Positions 4,488 through 42,054 of a stretch of 64,000 bases of DNA are shown here, piece by piece. The stretch is taken from assembly GCA_963753345.1 (NCBI GenBank), contig CAVWBU010000040.1, forward strand, positions 29,117 through 93,116, in the 5' to 3' direction. The stretch comes from an uncultured Fibrobacterota bacterium (GTDB lineage: Bacteria > Fibrobacterota > Chitinivibrionia > Chitinivibrionales > FEN-1185). Each line of letters opens with the position of its first letter. Within the stretch, counting starts at the first letter, position 1. The position numbers and the translations under genes were made by a program. A model generated the notes under the pieces. The model saw only the letters and a list, made by a program, of their open reading frames with translations. It made no database searches and was not told where the DNA came from.

Positions 4488-4567
4488 CTTATCCCTATAA
4501 CAACGATTCCTGAACAGCCTGATTCCAGTCTCAGGCTAACCGTTGCCCCCAATGAGAGGAGAATAGA

Positions 4568-4807: not shown

Positions 4808-4870
4808 ACACATGCATTCCAACAGAAGGTCGGCAAAAAAGATCCGGACATCAAAAAAAAGGGGCTCCGG

Positions 4871-5557: not shown

Positions 5558-5639
5558 TTGTAATTACCTTAGCATGGACGAATCGTGTGTTTCAGGCCAG
5601 AGCCAATAACGGTTCGGGTACAGCCTTTAACCTACACCA

Positions 5640-25342: not shown

Positions 25343-28054
25343 CTATTCCTCCACCTTATACATCGGTTCCATCCCCGCCTTCCCGCACAACTCGTTCACC
25401 TGTTTCTTGAGCTCGACCATGCGGAGCTCGCGGTCCACTGCGACACGGTTGAAACGCGACAATTCCTCGTTGGAAACGCGCAGTTCCTCCAAGTGCCGAG
25501 CAATCTCTTCTTCCGCCTTCTTTCGGTCGGTGATATCGCGCAAGATGACCACCGAGGCAACTTCTCCGTCTATTGTGTAAGCTGACACGCGCACGTCCAT
25601 ATCGAACGCCGTTCCGTCTTTCCGAAGGCCGCGGGTTTCGTAACCTGAAGGGGCGGAATCGCCCCGTGCGCGCAGGTGGACGTTCTCCGCAATTACCGGC
25701 CGCTGGGAAGGCGCGATAAGGTCGGTGATCGATTTCCCGATAAGTCCATCGTTGTCTGAGTAGCCGAAAAGCGCAAGGTATGCGGGATTTGCCGCTATAT
25801 GTATTCCGGCTTTCGATACACCTATGGCATCGACAGATGTCTCGAAGATGGCCCGAAGCTTGGCCTCGCTTTCCCGCAGCGCCTCGTCGGCCCGCTTACG
25901 TTCGGTGATGTCCGTATGAACCCACAGCCTGCCGAATATTTCTTCACCGATGCGAATAGTCGTGAAATCGCGCAGCATAACCCGTTCCCCACGCATCACG
26001 ACTTCTTCGGATTTTACGGGCAGGCCCGCACCGACTATTTCGCCTATGCGGGCCACGGCCGCGTCGGGCTCTTTGTACGACGGCCGGATCTTGTCGATTA
26101 TTTCGGCCGCCGACAACCCGGCCAGGCTGTCGGGAGAATCTTTGAGTCCGAAAATATCGCAGAATGCCTGGTTGGCAAATTCCACACGGTCTTGGTTGGT
26201 AACGAGCAGGATGCCGAAATTCATGTTCGAAAGGATCAGGTAGAACCTCATCAGGGTTGTTTGCAGCTTCTCTTCCAACTGCTTACGCTCGGTAATGTCG
26301 TGGGCCACTACCGTCGCGCCAGCTACGGCGCCGTCTTTCCAGTGGAACGTGGTGTTCACGAGCGCCCACACGAGGCGCCCGGCCTTTGTCCGCACCCGGA
26401 ATTCGGTTGATCCCTCGGGCCGCTCGCCTGCCCGCGCCCTGCGGACCCGGGACTCAAAAACGGCCTTTCCTTCGTCGTCAAGGATGTCCTGGGCGGACAT
26501 GGCGAGCAGCTCGTCGCGCGTGTAGCCGAGGACCCGGCACATCACGTCGTTGACTTCCGTGAAACGCCCGGTGGCGAAATCAACGTCATAGATGCCCGCG
26601 GGCGCGTACTGGATCAGGTGACGGTACCGTTCTTCGCTTTGGCGCAAGGCCTCTTCCAACACCATGTGCTCGCTGATGTCCTGTACCGCCACCGCGCACC
26701 CCGCCACCTCGCCGGCCGCGTCCAGGATGGGCGCGGCGCTGTTGTGAACGACGCGTTGCACGCCGTCAAAGCCTGTGATCCGGATGATCTGGCCGACAAC
26801 GGATTCTCCGGTGCGCAACGCCCGGGAAGACGCCCATTCATCGGGCACTATGGTTTTCCCCGTGTCAGCCCATTCCGCCTTGTCTTGAATGTAATCGCCG
26901 ATACTTTTTGCAGCCGGCTTTGGGTTGCCCCAGATGGTATCGAACGCCCGATTTGCAAGGACGGTCCCGCCTTGCGTGTCGAGCACCGCAACGCCCACGG
27001 GAAGGGTCTGCATCACCGCTTCAAGCCGGTTTCTATATTCCACAACCTCGTTCAATTTGTGTTGGGCAAGCTCGTGCGCCGCCTGCGTCGCCCATTCGGC
27101 CTGTTTCTTTTCCGAAATATCGCGGACGGTAAGGACCACATATTCGATTTTCCCTGCATTGTCGAAGACCGGGGCACCGCTGAAGCTTCCATACCATCGC
27201 CGCTTGGTGGGACGGACGTAAACGGAAAACTCCTCGCCCGAAAATGTTTCACCTGCGCAGACCCGGTTCATCGGCAGTTGCCCGATCGAAAGTTCTTTGC
27301 CGTCCGGGCCGGTCAGGTCCATCGTCTTGGCCTCTGCGGACATCACCCGCAGCATGTCGTCTCTCGATCCGAACCCGAACATGGCAAGCGCGGCATTGTT
27401 CATTTCCGTTATTCTTCCCCGCGCGTCGGCTATCACAAGCCCGTCGTGCGTGACAAGGGCGTCGATGAGTTTGCCGGAGCTGCGAAGCGCATCCTGGGCT
27501 TTCTTCCGGCCGGTAATGTCGAGAAGGGCCACCATGCACCGGTCGCCGGAACCGTCGCTACCGCGCACCACCGTGCTTTCGACCTGACACCTGATGGCGG
27601 GACCGTCGCCGTAGCAGCAATCGAGCTCGCATGACTGCTTTTCGTCGCCGACAAACATCCGCCGGCGGAACCTGAACCAGTCCTCCTGGCTTTCGCGGGA
27701 TACCATGCCGGAAAATTGTGTGCGGCCATCCTTGATTTTTGAGCGGTTGAGGCCGAACATTTTCACGGCGGTCAGGTTCGCCTCGGTTATCCGGGTTTCG
27801 CCGTCCAGGGTGAGATACCCCACCGGCGCAAAATCGTACAGCTCCGCAAAACGGTCGCGGGACTCCACGAGTTCGAGCTGCGCCCTCCTAAGGTCCTCGT
27901 TTTGCATTTCCAGCTCGGTCTCGTACACTTGCAGCTCGTGAAGGAGTTTCTGCACGTCGGCCGTCTTTAACGGGGGCGCGGAAGCCGGGTTTTCCCTTAG
28001 TATCGCTTCGGCGTCCTTGCGGAGCTGGGCGATGGAGCGGACTGGAGAATTCAT
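25343..28054 (-). CDS. Multi-PAS sensor protein with no output domain
   Basis: N-terminal LLHELQVYETELEMQNEDL helix; about six PAS/PAC units; ends in a coiled coil without HisKA; the ORF-track extension to 28165 lies in a repeat. Confidence 0.88.
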   Translation of the reverse strand: MNSPVRSIAQLRKDAEAILRENPASAPPLKTADVQKLLHELQVYETELEMQNEDLRRAQLELVESRDRFAELYDFAPVGYLTLDGETRITEANLTAVKMFGLNRSKIKDGRTQFSGMVSRESQEDWFRFRRRMFVGDEKQSCELDCCYGDGPAIRCQVESTVVRGSDGSGDRCMVALLDITGRKKAQDALRSSGKLIDALVTHDGLVIADARGRITEMNNAALAMFGFGSRDDMLRVMSAEAKTMDLTGPDGKELSIGQLPMNRVCAGETFSGEEFSVYVRPTKRRWYGSFSGAPVFDNAGKIEYVVLTVRDISEKKQAEWATQAAHELAQHKLNEVVEYRNRLEAVMQTLPVGVAVLDTQGGTVLANRAFDTIWGNPKPAAKSIGDYIQDKAEWADTGKTIVPDEWASSRALRTGESVVGQIIRITGFDGVQRVVHNSAAPILDAAGEVAGCAVAVQDISEHMVLEEALRQSEERYRHLIQYAPAGIYDVDFATGRFTEVNDVMCRVLGYTRDELLAMSAQDILDDEGKAVFESRVRRARAGERPEGSTEFRVRTKAGRLVWALVNTTFHWKDGAVAGATVVAHDITERKQLEEKLQTTLMRFYLILSNMNFGILLVTNQDRVEFANQAFCDIFGLKDSPDSLAGLSAAEIIDKIRPSYKEPDAAVARIGEIVGAGLPVKSEEVVMRGERVMLRDFTTIRIGEEIFGRLWVHTDITERKRADEALRESEAKLRAIFETSVDAIGVSKAGIHIAANPAYLALFGYSDNDGLIGKSITDLIAPSQRPVIAENVHLRARGDSAPSGYETRGLRKDGTAFDMDVRVSAYTIDGEVASVVILRDITDRKKAEEEIARHLEELRVSNEELSRFNRVAVDRELRMVELKKQVNELCGKAGMEPMYKVEE

Positions 28055-28103
28055 GGCTGACTTCCTTGTAATGAAATTGAACTCTGATTTGACTAGACCT
28101 TCG

Positions 28104-28204
28104 TAACCTCTCCCCCGGCCCCTCTCCTGCCAGAGAGGGGAAAATGCAACCTGTCGCCTTTTCAAAGTCCCTCTCTGATAGGAGAGGGATTTAGGGAGAG
28201 GTTA
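28104..28204. repeat. 101-bp palindromic REP-like element
   Basis: TAACCTCTCCC...GGGAGAGGTTA terminal inverted repeat with two internal CCCTCTC/GAGAGGG hairpins. Confidence 0.9.
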
Positions 28205-28612
28205 TCCTATGTCCATTCCAATCCTAATCTTCACGTTTTCCTCTATTTGCTTCACAACGTTATCAACGGAATTTAACACCTCGTCATTCCAGAACCGCAT
28301 TTCATCCAAACCTCTCAAAGCAAACACATTCCGCCGATGTTCGTCAATCAGTTTCTGTTCTTCTGAGACATGAACTTCTCCATCGACCTCCACCACTAAC
28401 TTGGCCTGATGACAAAAAAAGTCTACGATGAACCCTTCTATAATTTGTTGCCTTCTGAATTTAAGACCTAAAATCTGTTTCCGTCTCACCTGTTCCCAAA
28501 GTTTTGTTTCCGCCTCCGTCATTTTCTGACGCAGGTGTCTTGCCTGCCGAAGCTTGTACTTGTCAACGCGTTGAAGGAGGATTACTCCGCTGCTTGATTC
28601 GGATTTTCTCAT
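28202..28612 (-). CDS. DUF559 (Vsr-like PD-(D/E)XK) endonuclease
   Basis: ARHLRQKMTEAETKLW, KFRRQQII, FIVDFFC, VEVDGEVH, RFWNDEV. Confidence 0.92.
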   Translation of the reverse strand: MRKSESSSGVILLQRVDKYKLRQARHLRQKMTEAETKLWEQVRRKQILGLKFRRQQIIEGFIVDFFCHQAKLVVEVDGEVHVSEEQKLIDEHRRNVFALRGLDEMRFWNDEVLNSVDNVVKQIEENVKIRIGMDIG

Positions 28613-28623
28613 AGTAAGATTTG

Positions 28624-28834
28624 TAACCTCTCCCCCGGCCCCTCTCCTACCAGAGAGGGGGAAATGCAACCTGTCGCTTTTTCAAAGTCCCTCTCTGATA
28701 GGAAAGATGATTCTTGTAATTTTTGTTCCAACCTCTCCCCCGGCCTTTTCATCCTACCAAAGAGGGGAGAAAGACATTTCGGCTGACTTCTTCAAAGTCC
28801 CTCTCTGGTAGGAGAGGGATTTAGGGAGAGGTTG
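28624..28834. repeat. Two further copies of the REP-like element (truncated 28624-28703; full 28729-28834)
   Basis: Near-identical to 28104-28204, including TTCAAAGTCCCTCTCTG.TAGGAGAGGGATTTAGGGAGAGGTT. Confidence 0.9.
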
Positions 28835-31800
28835 TTACTCTCCTGCCCTGTCCATGAGCAGCAGAATCCGGGCCGGGCGTCCTTTTCCGCCTCCATCAAC
28901 GCGCCTTGCATTTATGTGGAACGGGTGCCTGCCCGCCAGGGGGACCTCGATGGAAAGGTCAAGGTTCTTTATCGGGGAAGCCTCGCCGCTCACGGCATCG
29001 GCCAGCCATTTCCGCGCCTCGGGCGCGTTCCACGGTTCGCCCATGAGCTCGAAAACCGTTCTACCTTCGGCCAGTTTCGCGGAAACATGGAAAAGGCCGT
29101 ACCAGCTTGCATTGGCCTGGACAATGCGCAAGTCTTCGTCGAGCACGATCATGGGCTCGCGCATGGACGAGAAGATGCTCTCGAACAGTTCGCGGGCCTC
29201 GCGTCCGGCCGTTTCGGCCAGCTTGACGCGGCCGATGTCCACGAACGTGACCACCAGGCCGTCGATGACGTTACTCGCGGTGCGATAGGGCATGATGCGC
29301 ATCTGGTAACAGGCATTGTCTTTGGTATACACCTCGGCTTCCTTGAAAATGAGCGTTTCGAGCACCTCCCGTGCGTCGCGCTCGAACCCGTCGTACTCGA
29401 TGTTCGAGACAAGATCGCTCACCGGTCTGCCGATGTCGGTGGGAATGAGTTTGACAAGCTTCACCGCCTTGTCGGTGTAGCGCTTGATGTTGAGGTTGCT
29501 GTCCAGGAATATCGTTGCAATCTCGGTGCCGTTGAGCAGGTTCTGCATGTCGTCGTTCGTCTGTGAAAGCTCTTCCACCTTTTTCTGAAGCTCCGCGTTT
29601 ACGGTGGTGAGCTCCTCATTGAGCGACTGCAGTTCCTCCTTTGATGTTTCGAGCTCCTCGTTGGCGCTCTGCATTTCCTCGTTTGTCGACTGCAATTCCT
29701 CGTTGGTGGATTTCAGCTCCTCGTTGGAAGTATCCAATTCTTCCACCGTTGTCCGCAGGGACTCCTTTGCAAATTGCAGATCGCGCTCCAGATCGGTTTC
29801 ACGGGGAACGGCGCCGGCCGGCGCGCTCTTTTTGCGGCCGGATTCTTCTCTGTGAAGCGGCGGAGCCTGCGTAAGGGTCACCAGAAGCAACCCGCGCACC
29901 GGTTCGGGGTCCCGTATCGGCGACACGGAAATATTGACATATTCATAGCCGCCGTTCGCCCGGACGCGGACACGTTCCTGCACCGCCTCCCTGTCCTGGG
30001 AGACCGCGGACCTTACGGCCGAGGCGAGGAATGTCTTGAGGCCCTCGCGCGCCATGTCAAAAATATTGAGCCGCGGCTGACCGGTTCCCGGTTCGAGAAA
30101 GGAGCCGGTGCGGCCGTGGATATACACGATGTCGCCGTGCGGGTCGATCACCACGCACGGAGGCGCGAAGCGTGCGAGCAGCAGTTTCTCCACCACCGCG
30201 GGAATCCGGTCCTTCCTCGGGGAATGGACGGGCGGCGCGAGCGCCGCTTGTCCGGCGTCACGGCCCGGCGGTTCCGCCGGCATGTCGGGCGGTTCCCTGC
30301 CGTCCGCTGTTTCCCTGCGCCTGTAGATTTTCCATTTCTTGTCGACCGTCTCGAAAAGCGCGGAGCTGTCGCCCACGGTTTCCGAAGGGCCCAGAAGCAA
30401 AACGCCGTGCGGCCTGAGGGCATAGTGGAAAATAGGAAGCAGCCGTTTTTGCAAATCGGCATTGAGGTAAATGAGGAGGTTGCGGCACGAGAGCATGTCG
30501 AGCTTTGTAAAGGGAGGGTCCTTGATCACGTTCTGCGGCGCGAAGACGACCATCTCCCGGATTTCCTTCCGGATGCGGTAGATGGGGCCTTCCTTTACAA
30601 AAAAGCGTTCCAGCCGCCGGGGAGACACATCCGCCGCGATACCCGCCGGATAGCGCCCCGTGCGCGCGGTCTCGATGGCTTCGGCGTCGAGGTCGGTGGC
30701 GAAAATCTGCACGGGATGGGGCTTGTTCAACTTCTCGAGGCATTCACGCACCAGCATCGCAATGGTGTAGGCCTCTTCGCCGGTGCTGCACCCGGGTACC
30801 CACACGCGGATGGGGTAATCGTCGGGACGGGACCCAATGAGTTCGGGCAAGACATTTTCGGCCAGGGCGGCGAAGGATTCCGGATCGCGGAAAAAAGAGG
30901 TGACGCTGATAAGCAGCTCCTTGAACAGAACGTTGATTTCGAGCGGGTTTTCCTGCAGGAAGCGCACGTACTGTTCCGGCCGGGATATCCGGTGCACGTT
31001 CATCCTGCGCTCGATGCGCCTGCGGAGCGTGCTCATTTTGTACGACGAAAAATCGTGGCCGAGGCGCGAGCGCAGCAAAACAAAGATTTTTTGCAGCGGC
31101 CGTTCCATTTTCCGAGGAACATCCACGGGCCCGGCGAGCGGGCGCACAAGGTTCATCCCCTTGACATAGGCGACAAGCCGGTCCGGCATGGCCGAGGGCG
31201 GCACGACGTAGTCCGCGATCGACGTGCCGATGGCGCTCATGGGCATGCCCGCATACCGCGCCGACCCCACATCCTGTACCATCGCCATTCCGCCTTCGCC
31301 CTTTATCGCCTTGAGGCCAAGGGTGCCGTCGGAGCCTGTGCCGGACAGCACGACGCATATCGCCCGTTCTTTCCGGTCCTGAGCCAGCGAGCGGAAGAAG
31401 AAGTCGATGGGGAGCGGCGGCATTTCCTTGGCGGGCACTTCCATGAGTTGGAGGGTGGCGTCCATGATTGCCAGATAGGCCCCCGGCGGTGCGACATACA
31501 CATGGTCCGGCTCCACGAGCGCGCCGTCCTTGGCCTGCACGACCGGTATTCTGGTTTCTTTTCCCAACAACTCGGGAAGAAGGCTCGTATGCCCCGGGTG
31601 CTGATGGGTAACCACGATATATGCCATCCCGGTATCGGGAGGCAGGCCTTTGAAAAGATCACAAAGGGCCTCGAGACCGCCTGCCGATGCGCCGATGCCA
31701 ACCACGGGAAAGCCCTTTTCCGGGGCCGGAGAAGGTGCGACGATCGTTCTGCTTTGTGAAGATGAGACCGAACCGCGTTTCTTCTTCGCTGCGGGCTTCC

Positions 31801-31861
31801 GCGGCCGCGCCGTCTTTCGTAATTGTATCATTGCCCGACTCCTGGATAACGAGTCCGCCAT
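28835..31861 (-). CDS. CheB/CheR fusion protein with coiled coil and PAS domains
   Basis: GIGASAGGLEA, LSGTGSDG (CheB); ISVTSFFRD, GCSTGEE, SCRNLLIY (CheR); EELQSTNEE repeats; PAS. Confidence 0.95.
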   Translation of the reverse strand: MADSLSRSRAMIQLRKTARPRKPAAKKKRGSVSSSQSRTIVAPSPAPEKGFPVVGIGASAGGLEALCDLFKGLPPDTGMAYIVVTHQHPGHTSLLPELLGKETRIPVVQAKDGALVEPDHVYVAPPGAYLAIMDATLQLMEVPAKEMPPLPIDFFFRSLAQDRKERAICVVLSGTGSDGTLGLKAIKGEGGMAMVQDVGSARYAGMPMSAIGTSIADYVVPPSAMPDRLVAYVKGMNLVRPLAGPVDVPRKMERPLQKIFVLLRSRLGHDFSSYKMSTLRRRIERRMNVHRISRPEQYVRFLQENPLEINVLFKELLISVTSFFRDPESFAALAENVLPELIGSRPDDYPIRVWVPGCSTGEEAYTIAMLVRECLEKLNKPHPVQIFATDLDAEAIETARTGRYPAGIAADVSPRRLERFFVKEGPIYRIRKEIREMVVFAPQNVIKDPPFTKLDMLSCRNLLIYLNADLQKRLLPIFHYALRPHGVLLLGPSETVGDSSALFETVDKKWKIYRRRETADGREPPDMPAEPPGRDAGQAALAPPVHSPRKDRIPAVVEKLLLARFAPPCVVIDPHGDIVYIHGRTGSFLEPGTGQPRLNIFDMAREGLKTFLASAVRSAVSQDREAVQERVRVRANGGYEYVNISVSPIRDPEPVRGLLLVTLTQAPPLHREESGRKKSAPAGAVPRETDLERDLQFAKESLRTTVEELDTSNEELKSTNEELQSTNEEMQSANEELETSKEELQSLNEELTTVNAELQKKVEELSQTNDDMQNLLNGTEIATIFLDSNLNIKRYTDKAVKLVKLIPTDIGRPVSDLVSNIEYDGFERDAREVLETLIFKEAEVYTKDNACYQMRIMPYRTASNVIDGLVVTFVDIGRVKLAETAGREARELFESIFSSMREPMIVLDEDLRIVQANASWYGLFHVSAKLAEGRTVFELMGEPWNAPEARKWLADAVSGEASPIKNLDLSIEVPLAGRHPFHINARRVDGGGKGRPARILLLMDRAGE

Positions 31862-31956
31862 GGCCGTCGTATGGAAAAAACTACTATAATATTTCCTCCC
31901 GTCAAACCGTTTTCCCCGGACGAAACGTTTCCGGGCATTCCCGAACCTTCAAGCAA

Positions 31957-33462
31957 TCAAGGAAGGACCCCGCACACGCAAAAATGCCCCACGCCTTCCG
32001 GACACACCGTCATCCGGCCCTCGCCCCCCGCCTGTTGCACGATGGCCGCCATTTCACCCATTGTAAATCCGCGCCGGATGGACAAGAGGCCGTCATACAG
32101 AGTGAAGCCGGTCCGGAAAAACAGCGTGGCAAGAATCCGAAACCCGAAATAGGCGCGCATCTTCCGCAGAAGGTCGATCGCCACAAACCCGAACCGCGAC
32201 GCCTCGCGCATGTTCTTGAGAACCGCCGTTACCTGGCTTTCGTCAAGGTGGTGCAGCATGTGGTTGGACACGGAGTAGTCGACGCTGTTCCTTTTGAGGC
32301 ACCCCGCAGCCGCGTCCGCGCATATCACGCGGGCAAACGGATCATTTCCAACCCTGTCTTTGAGAAACCGCGCCACGCGCCAGTCGGCGTCGACATACAG
32401 CACCGTCGCGGCAATGCCGCGGCGCCGGAGCCTTCGCGAGCACCATTGCCCGATATCGCCGCCACCCGCACCCAGTTCGCACAAGAGCACTTTTTTCAAC
32501 CGCTTTTTCCGTGTATCGGCGAGAACAGTTTTCTCGAACACTCTCCTGAACGGCGACACAGCAAGATTGACTAACCGGAAAGCATGCAGCGTGCGATGAA
32601 GGTCTGCCTGCTCCGACTCCCGATCGTCCATAAGCTCCTTTTCCCGCGAGCGGACCGACAGGTCGGGCAGCCACGGCCGCGGTGTGCGAGCAGCGCCGGC
32701 CGTCAGCCCGGATGCAAGAGAGGCATCGCAGCCCGGACGCGAAAGAGCCCCGGCCTTTTTGAGAAGCAGAATTTCGATCAACCCGAACATCCGACGTTCC
32801 GAAGCCTCCACGCTAAACCCGGTTTGCCTGCACAGCGCGTGCAGCGAGGTCGTGTCCGGATAGGCGGCAAGGCTGTCCGCTATGTAACCATAAACCCGCG
32901 GGCTTCCGTGCAAAAGCAGCCCCCACAAGAGGCCCCAGGCCTTGAGCACGATGTGTTGACAAAACGCGATTGCCGGCAGCGGCGAGCGGGAGAATTCGAG
33001 AAACACGGCGGAGGCTCCCGGTTGCATTACCCGGTAAAATTCCGCAAGAGCAACCGGCAGGTCAGGCGCGTTGCGCAATGCATACCCGCCGCACACAATT
33101 GCAGCGGACGAATCGGCCAGGCCGAGCCTTGACATATCCTGTATCGTGAGTGCCGCGGCAGGGCCGAGCCTGGCGGAGGCGGCACGGGCCATGGCGGGCG
33201 TCAGGTCCGCGGCGATGCATCGTCGGCGGCCGTAGCGCCGGGAGAGGAGCAGGGCCAGATCGCCGCTGCCGCTCGCAACATCCACCACGGCGCCGCCGGG
33301 AATGTCGCGGGGCAGCAGCGCGATGGCGCGGCGCTTCCATGCAGAATCCCTGCCCAGCGAAAGCACCCGGGTGGCAATGGCATATTTGGGCGCCACCACA
33401 TCGAACAACGACCGGTTGTAGTCCCGTTTCGATTCCGGCGTGGCAAGGAACGAAGTGGGCAT
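31957..33462 (-). CDS. Fusion of a UbiE/MenG-like methyltransferase and a second SAM-dependent methyltransferase
   Basis: N-half: FDVVAPKY, SLGRDSAWK, DVASGSGD, ALRN, LEFS, YIADS; C-half: RSREKELMDD, ELGAGGGD, NHMLHHL, DGLLSIRRGFT. Confidence 0.88.
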   Translation of the reverse strand: MPTSFLATPESKRDYNRSLFDVVAPKYAIATRVLSLGRDSAWKRRAIALLPRDIPGGAVVDVASGSGDLALLLSRRYGRRRCIAADLTPAMARAASARLGPAAALTIQDMSRLGLADSSAAIVCGGYALRNAPDLPVALAEFYRVMQPGASAVFLEFSRSPLPAIAFCQHIVLKAWGLLWGLLLHGSPRVYGYIADSLAAYPDTTSLHALCRQTGFSVEASERRMFGLIEILLLKKAGALSRPGCDASLASGLTAGAARTPRPWLPDLSVRSREKELMDDRESEQADLHRTLHAFRLVNLAVSPFRRVFEKTVLADTRKKRLKKVLLCELGAGGGDIGQWCSRRLRRRGIAATVLYVDADWRVARFLKDRVGNDPFARVICADAAAGCLKRNSVDYSVSNHMLHHLDESQVTAVLKNMREASRFGFVAIDLLRKMRAYFGFRILATLFFRTGFTLYDGLLSIRRGFTMGEMAAIVQQAGGEGRMTVCPEGVGHFCVCGVLP

Positions 33463-33463
33463 G

Positions 33464-34534
33464 CTATGCCGCCCTCAGCAAGCACGCGTGCATCGAAAGC
33501 CCGGCGCCGTAGGCGGCCATAAGGCAATGCTGCCCTTTGTCAATTCCCTTTTGCATTATACGCTCCAGCACGAACAGCGCCGTGGGAGACGACATGTTGC
33601 CAAAGTCGCGCAGCACGCCGACCGAGGCCTCCTGCTGCTGCGGGGTGAGTGCGAGTTCGCGCATCAATCCGCTAAGGATCTTGTCGCCGCCCGGATGCAG
33701 CGCCCAGTGCTCGACGTTCGCTTTCGACAGGCCGCTGTCGGCGAGAAGCCGGTCGATGAGAGGTGGCACCAGGGTCGTTATCAGGCGGGGTAGCCGAGGC
33801 GTGAGGCGGTTGTGAAGCGCGCCGTTCCTGTGCACGTAACGCACGTCGTCCCTGCACTGGGGCTCGTATGCTCCGCGAACATCGACGATGCCCAGGCCCT
33901 GCGGCCGGTCCCACACCACGGCTGCCGCGGCCCCGTCGCCGAAGATCGCATTGCTCACCAGGAGCGAGGGATCGTCTCCCATTTGAAAAGTGGCGGTGCA
34001 GATCTCCACCGCCACGCACAGGGAAACCCCGCCGTGCCGCTTCACCAGCGATTCTCCCATCTGTAAATTCGGGAGCGCGCCCCCGCACCCGGAACCCACG
34101 AGATCGAAGGCCCGCACGCCCCTGTCAAGGCCGAGCTCGCCGATAAGATACGTTGAAATCCCGGGGCAGATGTACCCGGTGCACGTGTTGACGATAAGCG
34201 ACGAGACGTCCTTCGCCTGTATGCCGGCGGAATCAAGCGCCTTGCGCGCGGCCTGTGCGGCAAGCTGCACCGACCAGCGCGTGAACCGGGCAATCCGTTC
34301 GTCGGCGGATTCGGTTTTCAGGAGCGGAACTTCCGCAATATTATCAACCGCAATGTATCTTTTGTTTATTGATGGATGGCGTAGGAATTGGGCCAACAAT
34401 ACAAGACTTCGCTCCTGTAAGACTGTTGCGTAATGTTCGCGCGATAGCGCAAGGGCCTGTTCCTGGGTCACCGCACAGGGCGGCGTTGCCGTACCCACCG
34501 CGGCGATGAATGAAGCGGGAGTTTCCGGTTTCAT
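33464..34534 (-). CDS. Type III polyketide synthase (chalcone-synthase-like)
   Basis: Catalytic Cys (GSGCGG), His (LHPGG), Asn (GNMSS); VEICT, FGDGAAA; likely start MKPETP at 34534. Confidence 0.95.
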   Translation of the reverse strand: MKPETPASFIAAVGTATPPCAVTQEQALALSREHYATVLQERSLVLLAQFLRHPSINKRYIAVDNIAEVPLLKTESADERIARFTRWSVQLAAQAARKALDSAGIQAKDVSSLIVNTCTGYICPGISTYLIGELGLDRGVRAFDLVGSGCGGALPNLQMGESLVKRHGGVSLCVAVEICTATFQMGDDPSLLVSNAIFGDGAAAAVVWDRPQGLGIVDVRGAYEPQCRDDVRYVHRNGALHNRLTPRLPRLITTLVPPLIDRLLADSGLSKANVEHWALHPGGDKILSGLMRELALTPQQQEASVGVLRDFGNMSSPTALFVLERIMQKGIDKGQHCLMAAYGAGLSMHACLLRAA

Positions 34535-34633
34535 CACGAACAAACCGCCTTTCTTGGGTAGCCATGCGGAAGACAACATCCGTTGCGAACAGTCGCCGTT
34601 GCGGCACAATAACCTTTTATCAAGGAGCTTGAC

Positions 34634-34918
34634 ATGACGACATCGCCCATCGAGCAGCGCGTTGCAAAGGTCATCGCCGACGTTCTCAAGGTCGCACCCG
34701 ACCGCATCGTGAGCGGCGCGCGCCTTAAGGAGGACCTCGGGGCCGACTCGCTCGACCAGGTGAGCCTGATGATGGACCTGGAACGGGAATTCGACGGTTC
34801 GATTAGCGACGAAGACGCGAAGAAAGCGGCGACCGTGGGCGATATCGTCGTCCTCATCACCGCGCTGGCGGCCGCCAAGCTTGCGGCGCGGGAGCGCGCC
34901 GTTTCCCCGTTGTCTTGA
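34634..34918 (+). CDS. Acyl carrier protein
   Basis: DLGADSLD phosphopantetheine site; TVGDIV; AAGGAG RBS. Confidence 0.92.
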
Positions 34919-34948
34919 CAAATAATAACAACCGTCCCTTTCGACATT

Positions 34949-36271
34949 ATGAAACGAAGAGTCGTCATTTCCGGCATCGGCGTCATCGCCCCCAACGGCG
35001 TCACCACCGAGGCGTTCTGGCAGGCATGCCTTTCTGGCGCGGCATCCGTCGCCTCCATCCCGGCCCACTGGCGAGAATATGCGGAGTACGGGTCGACGCT
35101 CTGGGCGCCGCTCCCGGCCGTCGACTTCTCGAGCTTCCGTATCTCCCGGATCGAGCAGATGCAGCAGGACAAAATCGCCCTCATGGCGATGGCGACCGCC
35201 GAACAGGCGCTGGCCATGGCCGGCATTGCTCCGGAATTACGCGACGAAAAAAAGAACACCTACACACTCCCTTTTCCAGATCCGGCCAGAGGCGGCGTCT
35301 CCATAGGCACCGGCGTCGGCGGCATCGTCAGCTACACCCAAAACCAGAGTAACCATATCCAAGCGCCGCTTGCTCCTTTTGTAACCTCGGAGGTGAAGCA
35401 ACGCCTGCTCCGCTATCCCGCCCGTTTTCATCCGTTCGCCGTGTCCATGACAATGCCCAATTCCGCCTCTGCGGCCCTGGGAATACGGTACGGCCTCACT
35501 GGCCCCAACAACACCTTCTGCAACGCCTGCGCCGCAGGCCTCGTTGCGATCGGTCATGCATATTCCGCTATCGCAGACGGCGCCCTCGACTTTGCCCTGT
35601 GCGGCGGGTCCGAACACCTCGACGAAGGGTTCGGAGGAATTTTCCGCGCCTTCGACATCGCCCGGACCCTGGTCCGTGACTGCAACGATCCTGCCACAGC
35701 CAACCGCCCTTTTGACAAACGCCGCTCCGGGTTTCTGCTGGCCGAGGGCGGCTGCGCCGTGCTGTTTCTCGAAGAGCTCGAAAGTGCCCGCCGCCGAGGG
35801 TGCGCGCCCGTGGCCGAAATAAAGTCCTATGCCGAATCCTTCGACGCCCACAGCCTCATGGCGCCCGACCCGGCCGGCGCGGCCGTCTCCCGGATGATCG
35901 CCCAGGCCTGCAGCGACGCAGCCATTGACACAAGAGACATCGACTACATCAACGCCCATGCGACCGGCACCCTTCTCAACGACGATGTCGAGTCCGCGGT
36001 CATTGAAAGGATTTTCGGCGACAAGCCCCTTGTCAATGCCACAAAGTCCCTTACCGGGCATGCCATCGGCGCGTCGGGGGCCATTGAGGCGGCGGTCGCC
36101 GCGCTGAGCGTCAGGCATAAAACCACCCATGCTTGCAAAAATCTTGATGATCCGGTCCGGCCGCTTAATTTCGTCCGCTCCCCCGCTTCCTTTCCCATCA
36201 GGACCGCACTCACGCACTCGTTCGCTTTCGGCGGGCACAACGCGGCGCTCGTTCTCTCCGATGTCAATTAG
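34949..36271 (+). CDS. Beta-ketoacyl-ACP synthase (FabF-like)
   Basis: RRVVISGIG, NACAAG active Cys, RPFDKRRSG, NAHATGT, KSLTGH, SFAFGGHN. Confidence 0.93.
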   Translation: MKRRVVISGIGVIAPNGVTTEAFWQACLSGAASVASIPAHWREYAEYGSTLWAPLPAVDFSSFRISRIEQMQQDKIALMAMATAEQALAMAGIAPELRDEKKNTYTLPFPDPARGGVSIGTGVGGIVSYTQNQSNHIQAPLAPFVTSEVKQRLLRYPARFHPFAVSMTMPNSASAALGIRYGLTGPNNTFCNACAAGLVAIGHAYSAIADGALDFALCGGSEHLDEGFGGIFRAFDIARTLVRDCNDPATANRPFDKRRSGFLLAEGGCAVLFLEELESARRRGCAPVAEIKSYAESFDAHSLMAPDPAGAAVSRMIAQACSDAAIDTRDIDYINAHATGTLLNDDVESAVIERIFGDKPLVNATKSLTGHAIGASGAIEAAVAALSVRHKTTHACKNLDDPVRPLNFVRSPASFPIRTALTHSFAFGGHNAALVLSDVN

Positions 36272-36274
36272 GGT

Positions 36275-37489
36275 CTACCACAGGCTTCCGCTCACCAGAT
36301 CGCTTTCGAGGGATGCCGCCATGGAACCGGCGCTTCGCGCGTACTCCTCGTTCACCGATACGGCCTTTGCCGCCCATTTGCGGCATATCCCGCACGAATC
36401 GCATGCACCGGCCCTGCAATTGTTTCTCAGGGCTTCTTCGAGAAAGCCGTCCAGCGCGCGATTGTCGACGTACACCGGGGCCGATGTTCTGTCGAATTCC
36501 CGGGGTATCACGGTTTCGGCATACCGTTTGAACCGGAACACCGACGACAGTTTCATTAAATCTGGACGAAGGAAGGTGAAAAGCATTCTCAGCCGCTGCG
36601 AGAACGGCGCGTTCTGTTCTTTCGCGATTGAGGCGACCGGTGCGACAAGCTCCCACAGGTTGCCGTCAAACGAACCGGATGCGTACGCCTCCACCCTGCG
36701 CAACAACAAGTCCTGCGGGCAACTGCGCTCAACAAGCTTGAAATTATCATAGCCGAGCTCCCGATAGAGTCCGAGGTCTTCGGGACGGATCCATATTGAG
36801 CGGATATGCGATACCGGATCATTGAGCCGCGTGCTCGAACATTGCAGGAAACAGTAATCGAAGCAGAAGCCTCCCAACTTGTCTCCGGAGCGGGAGCTTT
36901 GCGTAAGCAAGTGCATGTGGGTTGGTTCCCAGGCGCACTGCGGCATACAGCTGGCGTTTGCAATGAGCACCAGCTCGCATCGCACCGAAGACCGGATACG
37001 TGCGAGTTGGTTAAAATCACGATTGCAGGCGATTGCGCTGATGCACAGCACATCGGCGCCCATCTGTTCCCATTGTTTCGCTTTTGCAGGTGAATCGACA
37101 AGCGCGAATGCCCCGACTTTCACCCTCATTTTGGGATGCTCTTTCTTTATTATCTTAAGCAAATAGGGCAGGCTTACCGTTACACTGTCCACCCCTGCGC
37201 CCGCAATTGCCTCGATGAAAAGCCTTACCTTTTTCTGGCCGATTCTCGTCTGTTCAAGCCCGTACAAGCCTGCGGCATTCAACAGATAATTGAATCCCAT
37301 ACCGTGGCTGTGCGCCTCCTTTACAGACCGCACAAGCGTATCGAAGCCGGCAGGCCGGAGCGTGTAGGACGATCGGCCGCCCCCGATAGGGTCCCTGGGA
37401 AGCTTGGCATAAATGTCCTTGACTTGAGGGAATACGGCGAGCTTGGGGATAAGGCCCGGTTGAAACGAATAAGGGATCGATAGATTCAT
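36275..37489 (-). CDS. U32 family Fe-S protein (putative O2-independent hydroxylase)
   Basis: GGGR, FNYLLNA, NRDF, ANASCMPQC, YCFLQC, WIRPEDL..Y..G...FKLVER; C-terminal Cys cluster. Confidence 0.85.
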   Translation of the reverse strand: MNLSIPYSFQPGLIPKLAVFPQVKDIYAKLPRDPIGGGRSSYTLRPAGFDTLVRSVKEAHSHGMGFNYLLNAAGLYGLEQTRIGQKKVRLFIEAIAGAGVDSVTVSLPYLLKIIKKEHPKMRVKVGAFALVDSPAKAKQWEQMGADVLCISAIACNRDFNQLARIRSSVRCELVLIANASCMPQCAWEPTHMHLLTQSSRSGDKLGGFCFDYCFLQCSSTRLNDPVSHIRSIWIRPEDLGLYRELGYDNFKLVERSCPQDLLLRRVEAYASGSFDGNLWELVAPVASIAKEQNAPFSQRLRMLFTFLRPDLMKLSSVFRFKRYAETVIPREFDRTSAPVYVDNRALDGFLEEALRNNCRAGACDSCGICRKWAAKAVSVNEEYARSAGSMAASLESDLVSGSLW

Positions 37490-37754
37490 GATGGTGAAAA
37501 AAGGTTACTCCCTACGTGGATTTGCGTTCAATGTACCAGAATTCGCGTCACTACGTGCCTTTTAACGATGGGAAACCGTTCGATAAATATTGGGCGAGTG
37601 CCGGTTCTTCTCGAAAACGCAAAACATGTGCCATCGGTTCCTTGTTACGTATTGGATGGGGCAAAACGGAACGGCCTTGATATTTTCCAGCGACAACTGG
37701 CAGTATCAAGGAAGATACACTATTTCTCTCGATAGGACATGACCAAACTTGGTT

Positions 37755-37792
37755 TTGCCATTTCTGCAAAATTCTTTTCCGAATTCTGAGAA
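37755..37792. promoter_or_regulatory. Tandem palindromic upstream activator sites
   Basis: TTGCCA-TTTC-TGCAAA (37755-37770) and TTCCGA-ATTC-TGAGAA (37777-37792), 22 bp apart. Confidence 0.55.
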
Positions 37793-37883
37793 CTACCCCT
37801 GCGGGCCGAGAGAATTGCACGAATTGCAACGCCCAGCCTATGAGAGGATATGGTGGCCCCGATTTCTCATTTTGGTCTCCCGT

Positions 37884-37898
37884 TGGCATTGTTATTGC
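37884..37898 (+). promoter_or_regulatory. Sigma-54 -24/-12 promoter for bfr
   Basis: TGGCAT-TGTTA-TTGC. Confidence 0.75.
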
Positions 37899-38053
37899 GA
37901 AATCTTAGGCTCATAAACTCCATCGCAACAAATAGGCACGCCACGATTGGGATGAGAATGATATTGACGCCGCAAAGTGAGGATTGCGAAATCCGGAAAC
38001 TTTTCCCAACAATAATTGTGTACACTCACCGTCTCCCATAAAAGGAGGTTGAA

Positions 38054-38524
38054 ATGAAAGGCAACGTCAAACTGATCGAGGTCCTCAATTCCCTGCTCGC
38101 CGACGAGCTCACCGCCATCAATCAATACATGGTCCATGCCGAGATGTGCGAGAACTGGGGATATCAAAGACTGCACGGCCATTTTCAAAAGCGTGCGGTC
38201 GACGAAATGAAGCACGCGGAAAAACTCATCGGCCGCATCCTTTTTCTTGAGGGTACGCCCACGGTGTCCGAATACCGGAAGATCATCATCGGGTCCGAAG
38301 TTCCGAAGCAGCTTGACAACGACCACAGCCTTGAAATGGGCGCGATCAAATCGTACAACGATGCCATCAAATTTGCCGGCGACGCGGGGGATTTTGCCAC
38401 CCGCGAAATCCTGGAGTCCATTCTGCAGGACGAAGACCGTCATATCGACGGCATTGAGGAACTGCATGACCAGATCAAACAGATCGGCCTGCCGGTGTTC
38501 CTATCGGCCCAGATAAAGGAGTGA
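38054..38524 (+). CDS. bfr: Bacterioferritin
   Basis: MKG, ELTAINQY..H, DEMKHAE heme Met, RILFLEG, DEDRHID; AAGGAGG RBS. Confidence 0.96.
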   Translation: MKGNVKLIEVLNSLLADELTAINQYMVHAEMCENWGYQRLHGHFQKRAVDEMKHAEKLIGRILFLEGTPTVSEYRKIIIGSEVPKQLDNDHSLEMGAIKSYNDAIKFAGDAGDFATREILESILQDEDRHIDGIEELHDQIKQIGLPVFLSAQIKE

Positions 38525-38550
38525 TCGAACCGGTTTCCGGAAATCGTATA

Positions 38551-38668
38551 ATTGAAGAACCCCGCCCCAAATGGCGGGGATTCTTCCATAGCTAAGGAAA
38601 TAGAATAATAAATATTCGCCCGCTAACCCCGCGCCAAGTCGCGGGGAATGCGCGGGCTGTGCTATTCA
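38551..38668 (+). repeat. Dispersed palindromic (MITE/REP-like) element, copy B (118 bp)
   Basis: Near-identical to 4081-4240 without the 42-bp insert. Confidence 0.9.
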
Positions 38669-38681
38669 CAAAGGATAAATT

Positions 38682-39533
38682 GTGGCAGATCCGCTTCTCG
38701 GAAAGACCGCCATCGTCACCGGTGCAAGTTCGGGCATCGGCAAGGTCACGGCGCGGGAGATTGCAAAAGCCGGCGCAAGGGTCGTCATGGTGTGCCGTCC
38801 CGGAGCAAAGGCGAAGACTGCAATTGAGGACATTGCCCGGGAGGCAGGGTCGGAAAAGATCGAACTCTTGTCCGCCGACCTTTCGGATCTGGCATCCATT
38901 CGCGCATGCGCTTCTGAATTCAGAAAAACCCACGATCGCCTTGACATACTGGTAAACAACGCCGGTGTTTTTCTTCCCGACCGTCAGGTGACTGGCGACG
39001 GACTGGAAAAAACCTTTGCAACAAACCATTGTGCATATTTCCTGCTCACCAATCTTCTTTTCGACATGCTCAAGGCAAGCGCACCGGCGCGGGTAGTCTG
39101 CGTTGCGTCTGAGGCGGAACGCTGGGGAAAGATCGATTTTGACGACTTGCAGTGCGAAAAACGTTATTCGGGAATGAAGGCTTACGCCCAATCGAAACTC
39201 GCCAACATTCTTTTTACCTACGAGCTGGCACGGAGACTCAAGGGCACCGGCGTGACCGCAAATTGCGTTCATCCCGGTACGGTCCGCACCGGTTGGGGCC
39301 GCAATGCAAGCGGAATGTTCAAAATTGGACTGGCGCTGTATTGGCCGTTTATGGTTTCTGTCGAGGAAGGAGCGAAAACTTCAATCTATCTGGCATCATC
39401 ACCCGAAGTGGAAAAGGTAACGGGCCGATATTTTGAAAAGTGCAAACCTATCCATTCAATACCGGCATCATACGATACCGACCTCGCCGGGAAGCTATGG
39501 GAGGTAAGCGAGCGCCTAACAGGAATTTCATAA
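38682..39533 (+). CDS. Short-chain dehydrogenase/reductase (retinol-DH/WWOX-like)
   Basis: TGASSGIG, LVNNAG, YAQSKLAN, VHPG. Confidence 0.93.
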   Translation: MADPLLGKTAIVTGASSGIGKVTAREIAKAGARVVMVCRPGAKAKTAIEDIAREAGSEKIELLSADLSDLASIRACASEFRKTHDRLDILVNNAGVFLPDRQVTGDGLEKTFATNHCAYFLLTNLLFDMLKASAPARVVCVASEAERWGKIDFDDLQCEKRYSGMKAYAQSKLANILFTYELARRLKGTGVTANCVHPGTVRTGWGRNASGMFKIGLALYWPFMVSVEEGAKTSIYLASSPEVEKVTGRYFEKCKPIHSIPASYDTDLAGKLWEVSERLTGIS

Positions 39534-39629
39534 GGCTGATCCGGACATCGAACCAGCCCTGTTATCATCGCGAGTCCTACACGCAATGATATAATAATAG
39601 AAGAAACTAATAAGCCACACAATATCGTG

Positions 39630-40187
39630 TTAAGGTTTCTTTTTCCTGTTTTGTATTTGCAAAGGTATAAATATCTTCCACTCGATTACCTCATCTTTAA
39701 ATATTCTTCTTATACATTTTAAAACCCAAGGTGATTCGGCAATATCGTTTTCTATGGATATACTCTTATAAGTAAGCTTCCTCGGAAATTTATTATTTGT
39801 GTAATCAAAACCAACAGACTTAAGTTTATATATTATGCTGTCATTATCTGACATTGGAGTGTATAGGTTGATGAAGGTAGGAAGACTATCCATATTCCGA
39901 ACAATAAATAATCCTTCCCGTATTCTATAACAATACCTAATATCCCTTGTTTTCATCCTAATTATGGTGTCCTTACAATCCGGTTGTGGTGGGTTTGAAA
40001 AGTATATTGCCTGGATTAAGGAATCCGGAATTCGGAATGGTTTGCAGATAACATTTATCTCCGACTTAAATATTTGTATTAATGAATCAGTTTTCAATTT
40101 GTCTGCGGCGGTCACCGGGATAAAGCCCGCAAAAGAAAAAATGGAGAATATAGCAAATACCAATAATGATGTTGATTTGTATTTCAT
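39630..40187 (-). CDS. AT-rich hypothetical exported protein
   Basis: 185-aa ORF with signal peptide; ATG overlaps the upstream stop (ATGA). Confidence 0.6.
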   Translation of the reverse strand: MKYKSTSLLVFAIFSIFSFAGFIPVTAADKLKTDSLIQIFKSEINVICKPFRIPDSLIQAIYFSNPPQPDCKDTIIRMKTRDIRYCYRIREGLFIVRNMDSLPTFINLYTPMSDNDSIIYKLKSVGFDYTNNKFPRKLTYKSISIENDIAESPWVLKCIRRIFKDEVIEWKIFIPLQIQNRKKKP

Positions 40188-40654
40188 ATTTGGGCCCTAA
40201 CAATTTCCTGATCCGGACAGCAGGTGTCCATCCCCTTTGAGCAGGTGCACCGCATCTCCCATTCCGAAACACTTCCTTTGTGAGCGGGGAGCCTTTCCCT
40301 TTGCCACTCCTTCCAGCCCACATTGAGTTCCTTGACAAAAAATCCGTTCTCTGCCAACTGCAGAGCCGCTTTCACGCTCGCCATTCAGTGTTGATGAGCG
40401 CAATAGGTCACCAGCTCCCTGTCCTTGGGCAGCAATGTCATAAAAGCCTTCAACTCCGGCAATGGAACGGATAATGCACCTCGTATATGCCCCTGGGCAA
40501 AGGCGTTCCTGTCCCGGACATCAAGGAGAAGAAAATCCCCTGAATCAGGTTTTCCCGCGGCCCATTGTGAGACTGAATGTTGTGCTTTTTCCGCTGCTAG
40601 TTTTGCGGCGAAATAGTCCCGGTTGGCGTTAATATCGCTTTGTGAAAAGCTCAT
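40184..40654 (-). CDS. Rhodanese-like protein with in-frame TGA (probable selenocysteine) at 40385-40387
   Basis: ORFs 40385-40654 and 40184-40384 are in frame and separated only by TGA: LLDVR..GHIRGA..VTYCAHQH-U-MASVKAALQL..G..VKELNVGWKEW. Confidence 0.85.
40349..40365 (-). promoter_or_regulatory. Bacterial SECIS-like hairpin
   Basis: mRNA CUCUGC-AGUUG-GCAGAG; stem starts 19 nt after UGA; G at loop position 2. Confidence 0.7.
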
Positions 40655-40696
40655 AGGGGCATCCTTTCTGCTATTCCATCGGCCGATAGTCCTGAT

Positions 40697-41341
40697 CTAT
40701 ATCCTTAATAGCTTGAATGCGTGGTTCCACGAGTTTGTCTTCATGCCGTAGGTCAGCCAGAGGATGCACATGGGTTCCAGCAGACGAGCACCCGTGATAT
40801 CTCCTATGTCAACTACTCCCCAACCGAAGGCGACACAGAGGTCCGCTACGGCCTTTTTTGCGGTCTCGTCGTTGCCGCAGATGAACATGTCCGGTGGTCC
40901 GCCTTCGAATTTCGGATTGACCATATGCGCGTACCCCACCGTGTTGAACGCCTTGACTACTTTCGAGTTCGGCAGCCACCGCTGCACCTGTTCGCCCGCC
41001 GAATCGGTATGACCCAGGGCAAGCACCGGGGGTTGGTGATCTTTGAACACAAGAGGATTGGTCACGTCTATGACAACCTTGTTTGCAAGGTTCTTTGGAT
41101 TCGCCAGCCGTATTGCATTCTTGGTTCCACTCCATTTTGTAGCCAGCACGACAAGCTCTCCGAACGCCGCAGCCTCCGAAAATGTCCCGACCAATGCCTG
41201 AGGCGTATTTCCGTTAAGCCATGTTTTCATCTTCTCACTATGGGAATCGCGTGTTCCGATTTTTACGTTGTGTTTGAGCGAAACAAAGCCCGATCTCAAT
41301 GCCCTGCCTACATCTCCGCTGCCAATGATTCCAATGTTCAT
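40697..41341 (-). CDS. NADP oxidoreductase, F420-dependent family (F420_oxidored)
   Basis: IGIIGSGDVG, VIDVTNPL, VVKAFNT, ICGND..AK, DIG..ARLLEP. Confidence 0.9.
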   Translation of the reverse strand: MNIGIIGSGDVGRALRSGFVSLKHNVKIGTRDSHSEKMKTWLNGNTPQALVGTFSEAAAFGELVVLATKWSGTKNAIRLANPKNLANKVVIDVTNPLVFKDHQPPVLALGHTDSAGEQVQRWLPNSKVVKAFNTVGYAHMVNPKFEGGPPDMFICGNDETAKKAVADLCVAFGWGVVDIGDITGARLLEPMCILWLTYGMKTNSWNHAFKLLRI

Positions 41342-41397
41342 AATAACCTCCAAGATTGATTTCATTCATCATCCCTATCAATAATGAGAAGAAAAAC

Positions 41398-41412
41398 GCA
41401 AAGAATATGCCA
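41398..41412 (-). promoter_or_regulatory. Sigma-54 -24/-12 promoter
   Basis: TGGCAT-ATTCT-TTGC on the minus strand. Confidence 0.75.
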
Positions 41413-41464
41413 TATTTTCAATCTTCCATAGCTACAATCCGGTGTTTTTGCGATTAAATAACTG

Positions 41465-41479
41465 CGGCACAGCCATTGC
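41465..41479 (+). promoter_or_regulatory. Sigma-54 -24/-12 promoter
   Basis: CGGCAC-AGCCA-TTGC; CTATCA-ATAA-TGAGAA at 41375-41390 upstream. Confidence 0.65.
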
Positions 41480-41601
41480 GTATTTAGATAGAATGGCAAG
41501 GAACGTGGTAAAAATATTTCCTTCGAAGTTAACGAAATATTATGACGGGGTAAAGGATCGAAACAACTCATGAATCAGGAAATCAATTAAGGAGGCGAAT
41601 T

Positions 41602-41931: not shown

Positions 41932-42054
41932 GAGAATAGCGTCTTCTGTTTAAGTAAATGACCGCACGAACCACAGTAACGAATCTTCGGCGGTTAGTGG
42001 GTTTTCCAGAATTGTGACACATCGAATACCGCCCACGAATACCGCCTTTGCCTC

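Follow-up and report, generated by a model that had tools for sequence, protein, structure and literature searches.

The SrsABC and PkqABC operons, each of which combines a type III polyketide synthase (PKS) with a methyltransferase (MT) and an oxidoreductase, convert an alkylresorcinol to a methylated alkylbenzoquinone, and the polyketide quinones of this type have been proposed as alternate electron carriers under low O2 (PMC9927152, PMC12329547). In ubiquinone synthesis, UbiU and UbiV, members of the U32 superfamily, are needed to hydroxylate a lipid-tailed phenol ring without O2 (PMC10990095), and every U32 member of known role is required for an O2-independent hydroxylation (PMC10990095, PMC11574389). 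Here we describe a cluster of five genes at positions 31957..37489 of a 64,000-nucleotide stretch of DNA (the window) from an uncultured bacterium of the phylum Fibrobacterota. The cluster encodes an MT-MT fusion, a type III PKS, an acyl carrier protein (ACP), a FabF-like beta-ketoacyl-ACP synthase (KS) and a U32-like protein, all found where a preliminary description, made from the letters of the window, had placed them.

We propose that the five genes act as a single biosynthetic unit that makes a modified phenolic lipid. In the presumed order of steps, a long acyl starter would probably be assembled or handed over by the ACP and the FabF-like KS, and the type III PKS, judging from its family, would extend it with malonyl units and cyclise to an alkylresorcinol-type ring (a resorcinol or, possibly, a pyrone). 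The U32-like protein, a putative Fe-S protein, would introduce a hydroxyl group into the ring independently of O2, with prephenate as the oxygen source, as has been published for UbiU and UbiV, and the UbiE-like and second MT domains would methylate the ring, yielding a methylated or methoxylated alkyl-hydroquinone or benzoquinone, that is, a polyketide quinone. With moderate confidence, based on the conserved gene linkage and on the chemistry of the U32 family, we favour the view that the U32-like protein is an O2-independent ring hydroxylase in a polyketide-quinone-type pathway, replacing the flavin hydroxylases SrsC and PkqC. The product may serve as a membrane redox lipid, which is the least certain part of the proposal.

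Linkage of the U32-like gene with type III PKS genes

A pattern scan with one genome per species yielded 79 loci (numbered L below) with full-length relatives of the U32-like protein (36-56% identity), and their neighbours were identified by blastp of the window proteins against the six-frame open reading frames (ORFs) of these loci. A type III PKS homologue lies near the U32-like gene (within 3.6 kb) in 33 of the 79 loci, from about ten phyla, some of these homologues being fragments or split by frameshifts (L008, L016, L050). The two genes share a strand in 32 of the 33 cases, with a median gap of 790 bp, a gap of at most 100 bp in 9 and a maximum of 3.6 kb. Fibrobacterota, Planctomycetota, Acidobacteriota, Bdellovibrionota, Nitrospinota, Verrucomicrobiota, Lentisphaerota and Desulfobacterota are among the phyla of the loci. 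The pairing of U32-like and PKS genes that the preliminary description had singled out in one genome is therefore, in this set, a conserved one.

A Pfam scan of 163 ORFs from 20 of the PKS loci confirmed the PKS in 14 (in L028, L029, L031, L036, L042 and L062 it is identified by blastp, not by Pfam) and delineated a recurring cassette of PKS, U32-like gene, UbiE-type MT and second MT. Across the 79 loci, a UbiE-type MT is found in 28, and the two MT domains that are fused in the window are separate adjacent genes in other loci (e.g., L014:12061-12837 and 12834-13589). A flavin monooxygenase, expected from the preliminary description to be rare next to such gene pairs, is indeed scarce: of the 20 annotated PKS loci, one (L063) has a FAD_binding_3 gene adjoining the U32 gene. 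A KS is present in 14 of the 79 loci, only 10 of which (L006-L015, all Fibrobacterota) have one at 45% identity or more; these 10 encode KS orthologues (45-57% identity) in the same position as in the window, and the ACP is found in the same 10. The ACP and the KS are a Fibrobacterota-only add-on to the cassette, and each of seven other window neighbours occurs in 0 of the 79 loci. The pathway originally suggested, with the U32 protein standing in for the oxygenase and the ACP and KS supplying the starter, is upheld in part: its U32 component gains from the linkage and from the chorismate mutase genes of the sister clade described below, whereas its ACP/KS component is confined to Fibrobacterota.

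Within the phylum of the window, 151 genomes (numbered G; the genome of the window itself included) were searched with the U32-like and PKS proteins. PKS-type U32-like proteins (identity of 48% or more, or above 50% for fragments) were found in 41 of the 151 genomes and PKS orthologues (at least 42% identity) in 45. Both genes are present in 40 genomes, the U32-like gene only in 1 (G135), the PKS only in 5 (G003, G016, G095, G113, G141) and neither in 105. Among the 40 genomes with both, the two genes lie on one contig less than 4 kb apart in 30 and on different, mostly short contigs in nine; in G012 they are 124 kb apart on one contig, and the three genomes of one genus (g4: G006, G012, G023) retain both genes even though these are unlinked. 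Because the 151 genomes are related, this table overstates the independence of the observations, and the linkage across many phyla is the stronger argument.

These distributions bear on the simplest alternative, namely, that the U32-like gene has an unrelated housekeeping function, such as RNA hydroxylation or proteolysis, and only happens to neighbour the PKS genes. In its favour, the best E. coli match is the tRNA hydroxylation protein TrhP, relatives carry public names such as 'collagenase-like PrtC family protease' and 'U32 family peptidase', and the U32-like gene of the window is convergent with the KS gene, not co-oriented. We nevertheless consider it very improbable, given that the match to TrhP covers the N-terminal barrel only, that the split within the phylum is 40/1/5/105 and that overlapping or near-touching operons recur in unrelated phyla, with the order PKS-U32-(MT) in L029, L031, L041 and L063 and U32-PKS-MT in L017 and L023.

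The U32-like protein and its sister clade

The Peptidase_U32 (PF01136) match of the U32-like protein spans residues 87-203 only, that is, profile positions 3-117 of 233 (29.6 bits in the search of its own genome), and no NCBIfam model matched the protein. Its AlphaFold2 (AF2) model (pLDDT 92.2) has the U32 protein Mk0906 (5d88) as the best Foldseek match (E 2.6e-10, target-normalised TM-score 0.74), with generic TIM barrels ranking next, and 5d88_A is the sole significant sequence match in a profile search of the PDB (E 6e-15). The model thus points to a U32 fold with an N-terminal TIM barrel. A word-indexed search retrieved 743 relatives, the named ones being annotated as 'U32 family peptidase' or 'collagenase-like PrtC' in metagenome-assembled genomes of Fibrobacterota/Chitinivibrionales, and a hidden Markov model (HMM) scan of 1.84 billion representatives returned 681 clusters (50% identity) at E <=1e-30.

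UbiU, UbiV, TrhP and RlhA of E. coli were taken from NC_000913.3 for comparison with the family HMM, which scored 33.7 bits against TrhP, 8.0 against UbiU and 4.3 against RlhA and had no match to UbiV at E up to 10; HMM positions 20-183 match TrhP residues 13-172 only. In hhalign, TrhP is matched with a probability of 96.9% (25% identity over 170 columns, TrhP residues 24-199 of 453) and UbiU with 53% over 103 columns. Because these scores are either weak or limited to the barrel, the U32-like protein represents a subfamily of its own within the U32 superfamily and is not orthologous to UbiU, UbiV, RlhA or TrhP. A grouping with the RNA hydroxylases, which the preliminary description had regarded as damaging to its proposal, is not seen in either comparison, nor is one with UbiU/UbiV.

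In an alignment of 31 members, cysteines C181, C185, C213, C217, C366 and C369 are invariant and C149, C155, C358 and C363 nearly so, which defines two subfamily motifs, CX3C-X27-CX3C (C181-X3-C185-X27-C213-X3-C217) and a C-terminal CX4CX2CX2C. The invariant cysteines fit Fe-S binding by the U32-like protein. In the U32 Fe-S 'oxidases', four cysteines in the arrangement CX6CX15CX3C bind a [4Fe-4S] cluster (PMC11574389).

In a quick maximum-likelihood tree of 81 family members, the window protein belongs to a 14-member Fibrobacterota clade (SH-aLRT support 100), with 13 of the 14 PKS-linked; a group of 40 tree rows contains 20 PKS-linked members, and the PKS-linked L036 (Nitrospinales) stands alone. 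A sister clade of 26 rows (SH-aLRT 100) has no PKS, and every other major clade has PKS-linked members. The neighbours of the loci that lack a PKS were characterised by a Pfam scan of 153 same-strand genes from 46 loci. In 13 sister-clade loci, a fusion of chorismate mutase (CM_2) and 3-deoxy-D-arabino-heptulosonate 7-phosphate synthase (DAHPS) directly adjoins the U32-like gene, in the order CM-DAHPS in 11 Myxococcota-type loci (L038, L045, L048, L054, L058, L059, L066, L069, L073, L076, L080) and DAHPS-CM in 2 from Crocinitomicaceae (L071, L079). Other neighbours in this clade are squalene/oxidosqualene-type cyclases in 9 loci, with a flavin adenine dinucleotide (FAD) protein in between in 3 (order U32-FAD-cyclase in L058, L067 and L080), and polyprenyl synthases in 5. 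One member of this clade is a paralogue encoded in the window's own genome (G000:C16, L088:9387-10685; 35% identity to the window protein). It heads an apparent operon with the same gene order (L088:9387-13738), in which the U32-like gene precedes genes for an FAD protein of the geranylgeranyl reductase family and for a cyclase; the latter reaches 814 bits on the 2,3-oxidosqualene cyclase model, against a cut-off of 851.

Chorismate mutase produces prephenate. Genetics and 18O labelling have shown prephenate to donate the oxygen in UbiU/UbiV-dependent hydroxylations, and the authors propose the same for U32 proteins generally (PMC10990095). The adjacency of chorismate mutase in two phyla and in two fusion orders fits a U32-type hydroxylase and is what would be expected of a prephenate-consuming enzyme. 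This link is independent of the PKS linkage.

The assignment of a reaction has to be weighed against the possibility that the U32-like protein acts in the same pathway as something other than a hydroxylase, in another Fe-S redox or lyase step or in electron transfer. Candidate reactions are reduction of the ring, a dehydroxylation and the decarboxylation of an alkylresorcylic acid; alternatively, the protein could pass electrons to a B12-radical S-adenosylmethionine (SAM) partner, and B12-radical-SAM genes do adjoin the U32 gene in L024, L029, L036 and L037. Linkage places the protein in the pathway and specifies no reaction; the cysteine motif is non-canonical, and the extra C-terminal CX4CX2CX2C resembles an electron-transfer module. 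Direct in vitro hydroxylase activity has been demonstrated for no U32 protein (PMC10990095, PMC11574389). We regard this alternative as unlikely: all U32 members of known role are tied to O2-independent hydroxylation, the chorismate mutase genes next to sister-clade members are specifically what one would expect of a prephenate user, and the U32-like gene fills the hydroxylase slot of the Srs/Pkq operons.

The ring-hydroxylase assignment that we favour draws on genomic and structural comparison, and several observations weigh against it. Likeness to the characterised U32 hydroxylases is confined to the N-terminal barrel, about 130-170 columns being alignable between the U32-like family and UbiU/UbiV/TrhP/RlhA. 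The canonical CX6CX15CX3C spacing is missing, the region holding CX3C-X27-CX3C instead, and the correspondence of the cysteines to the canonical motif differs between alignments: in MAFFT only C181/C185 match the canonical CX3C pair, and in hhalign C181 falls on the first canonical cysteine and C209/C213 on the CX3C pair. In the flanks fetched, 46 of the 79 loci have no PKS, some of these being short contigs and others having plainly different neighbours, and L063 holds a U32 gene and a FAD_binding_3 gene together. Because the context of the paralogous clade is a terpenoid one, the family is not tied to a fixed substrate. Finally, the source organism is not a strict anaerobe and O2 is part of its life, because its genome encodes a haem-copper oxidase.

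A broader generalisation would make the subfamily a general prephenate-dependent, O2-independent oxygen inserter for membrane lipids, making prenyl-free polyketide quinones in the PKS-linked clades, where these could be the redox lipids of bacteria in which no MenA reaches the cut-off, and introducing the oxygen function of cyclic triterpenoids without O2 in the sister clade. This extension is speculative and, in our estimate, decidedly improbable.

Two further U32 loci were observed. The genome of the window carries another U32 gene (G000:C32, L002:1189-3282; PF01136 174 bits) with one in-frame TGA, which might encode selenocysteine, result from a frameshift or mark a broken gene. A locus from Thermodesulfobacteriota (L024:3028-8164) has tandem U32-like genes (4285-5496, 5535-6746) flanked by MMPL, KS and B12-radical-SAM genes; the flank holds no type III PKS.

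Organization and surroundings of the cluster

The coordinates of the cluster are given in Table 1. The genes are as tightly packed as had been reported: 1 nt separates the PKS stop from the MT start, 96 bp the divergent PKS and ACP genes, and 3 nt (36272-36274) the converging stops of the KS and U32-like genes.

Table 1. Features of the type III PKS cluster, with positions in the window
Feature	Position	Strand	Length and characteristics
MT-MT fusion	31957-33462	(-)	501 aa; UbiE/COQ5 MT, residues 12-236, and second class-I MT, residues 271-477
Type III PKS	33464-34537	(-)	357 aa; Chal_sti_synt_N and Chal_sti_synt_C
Divergent intergenic region	34538..34633	.	96 bp between PKS and ACP starts; presumed promoters
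ACP	34634-34918	(+)	94 aa; Ser39 in DSL motif; NF002148 84.5 bits, cut-off 71
FabF-like KS	34949-36271	(+)	440 aa; Cys194/His337/His371 present
U32-family protein	36275-37489	(-)	404 aa; Peptidase_U32 28.0 bits vs 22.4

The double methyltransferase noticed at the outset is borne out by the domain searches: the N-terminal domain of the fusion matches UbiE/COQ5 (PF01209, 97.8 bits) and the second is detected as Methyltransf_12 (residues 329-421) and as NF004851-like (residues 271-477). The equivalog level of UbiE/MenG is missed (NF001244, 134 bits vs a cut-off of 216; TIGR01934, 127 vs 158), so the protein is a member of the UbiE/COQ5 family and not a UbiE/MenG equivalog.

Both PKS domains score above 27 bits (PF00195, 61.3 bits; PF02797, 65.0 bits), and the catalytic triad, described earlier as intact, is Cys119 (NTC), His281 (HPGG) and Asn314 (GNMSS). 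The mechanical ORF extends to a GTG at 35068, and the ATG at 34537 agrees with the homologues. The chains of known structure nearest to it, 7cb3, M. tuberculosis PKS18 (1ted, E 3e-36), 1u0m and Pks11, are pyrone and naphthalene synthases. Alkylresorcinol-type PKSs use an aldol-type cyclisation and have a Trp at the position of ArsB-281 (PMC9927152). The KS scores 308 bits on the FabF model TIGR03150, below the equivalog cut-off of 493 bits.

The preliminary description had also remarked on the absence of a flavin monooxygenase gene, and among the 16 ORFs scanned (25343-44186) which include the cluster, we found neither a flavin monooxygenase domain nor any oxidoreductase or FAD domain; no UbiT/SCP2 gene was seen in the cluster either.

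Immediately upstream, at the MT end of the cluster, a gene (28835-31861, minus strand) encodes a 1008-aa protein in which CheB methylesterase, CheR methyltransferase and PAS domains are fused; it is adjoined by one for a 940-aa protein of five PAS domains (25343-28165, minus strand). On the other side, beside the U32-like gene, four ORFs (37551-40187, minus strand; 112, 191, 226 and 185 aa) have no Pfam or NCBIfam match, and none of them is kept in the 79 related loci. The GC content is 0.607 in the cluster, 0.48 at 38-42 kb and 0.524 in the whole window. DNA near-identical to 31957-37489 (at least 0.64 of sampled words) is present in four peat metagenome runs of one study and in freshwater sediment runs of a second study, a possible source of the window; no RNA run is among the runs listed.

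Possible role of the lipid and comparison with known systems

Genes found beside the cassette in other phyla hint at a respiratory role: YceI in six loci (L025, L032, L035, L036, L041, L049) and, as single cases, type II NADH dehydrogenase (NDH-2; L036), an ABC1/UbiB kinase (L044), multihaem cytochromes (L025) and cytochrome bd I and II together with a UbiA-family gene (L082). In the genome of the window, which is 94% complete, MenA (best 21.6 bits vs a cut-off of 102) and MenB stay below their cut-offs, MqnA/D and cytochrome bd were not found, and no UbiA-family ORF matched a quinone prenyltransferase model; the genome does encode NuoH and haem-copper oxidase subunit I (COX1; C40:25059-26387, about 35 kb from the cluster). 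No MenA reaches the cut-off in 36 of the 41 cassette genomes of the phylum sample.

Other distributions in this sample lend no support to the redox-lipid part of the proposal. NuoH is present in 23 of the 41 cassette genomes versus 87 of the 110 others, which is no positive association, and its 110 occurrences in the 151 genomes include all 55 genomes of one family (f9) in which cassette and MenA were both not found. MenA is above the cut-off in only 6 of the 151 genomes, 5 of which have the cassette. As tests of the idea that the lipid is the sole respiratory quinone, these results are neutral. Since the points in favour of a redox lipid are mixed with a neutral or contrary distribution of NuoH and MenA, we hold the respiratory role clearly below the chemistry, in which, as stated above, our confidence is moderate.

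A serious competitor on this point is that the chemistry is as proposed and the lipid is no electron carrier at all, being instead a structural, protective or antibiotic phenolic lipid comparable to the alkylresorcinols of Azotobacter cysts and the Streptomyces Srs products. The lack of a positive NuoH association and the coexistence of MenA in 5 genomes agree with this alternative, as do the MMPL transporters beside the cassette in 6 loci (among them L025, L029, L036 and L042), which suggest export to the envelope, and the supply of starters by an ACP and a KS, which recalls ArsA/ArsD of Azotobacter. It has to contend with the UbiE-family MT in the cassette, with the neighbours of the cassette in other phyla (YceI, ABC1/UbiB, cytochrome bd and NDH-2), and with the window's own genome, in which NuoH and COX1 are present and the menaquinone genes named above are not detected at cut-off. 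We regard it as a real possibility, although one that we do not favour.

To our knowledge, U32 proteins are the sole enzymes that hydroxylate with an organic O donor (prephenate). Their known substrate classes are ubiquinone intermediates and RNA bases only, and most subfamilies are uncharacterised (PMC10990095). Polyketide phenolic lipids would be a concrete, testable candidate for a third class, and the cassette is small (three to five genes), so that heterologous expression is feasible. The U32-like protein itself would be an enzyme of one polypeptide chain that has two candidate Fe-S sites. If the proposal is true, polyketide quinones are not limited to actinobacteria and can be produced under anoxia by sediment and peat bacteria of many phyla, and the U32-like and PKS genes together would be a marker pair for locating them. 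The oxidosqualene-cyclase-like genes next to sister-clade members offer a separate lead, on the oxygen need of cyclic triterpenoid synthesis; should the same chemistry hold there, the assumed tie of cyclic triterpenoids to molecular oxygen would be loosened. The type of pathway that leads to polyketide quinones and phenolic lipids and the U32 superfamily are already known; new are the combination of PKS and U32, a distinct subfamily with altered cysteine motifs, and its breadth across phyla. No report linking U32 proteins with type III PKSs or triterpene cyclases was found in the literature within reach, which leaves out subscription journals and bioRxiv supplements.

Among described systems, ArsABCD of Azotobacter vinelandii provides a precedent for the supply of long starters to type III PKSs by dedicated fatty-acyl machinery. 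ArsA and ArsD are large enzymes resembling type I fatty acid synthases, whereas the window cluster has only a discrete ACP and KS and, in addition, a predicted hydroxylase/methyltransferase tailoring set.

The closest likeness is to SrsABC of Streptomyces griseus and PkqABC of Mycobacterium smegmatis and Streptomyces sp. MNU77, in which a long-acyl-primed type III PKS, a ring MT and a ring-oxidising enzyme are encoded in one operon, an arrangement that the cassette would share. The third Srs/Pkq enzyme is an oxidoreductase/hydroxylase, a flavoprotein; of the three components of such operons, the window cluster has the PKS and the MTs and no oxidoreductase, and the conserved slot is occupied by the U32 protein. 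Also unlike Srs/Pkq, there are two MT domains, one of them of the UbiE type, Fibrobacterota add the ACP and the KS, and the distribution is non-actinobacterial, the runs that contain near-identical DNA being labelled as sediment and peat metagenomes.

With UbiU/UbiV(/UbiT), the cluster shares the U32 superfamily and a UbiE-type MT alongside; UbiU and UbiV are Fe-S dependent, and prephenate serves them as O donor (PMC10990095). Unlike the UbiU/UbiV heterodimer, the U32-like protein consists of one polypeptide chain that carries two candidate cysteine clusters; its cysteine spacing differs, and its proposed substrate is polyketide-derived, not prenylated. Finally, TrhP (YegQ), matched in its N-terminal barrel, and RlhA (YdcP) are needed for RNA hydroxylation, whereas the conserved neighbours of the U32-like family are lipid and polyketide genes.

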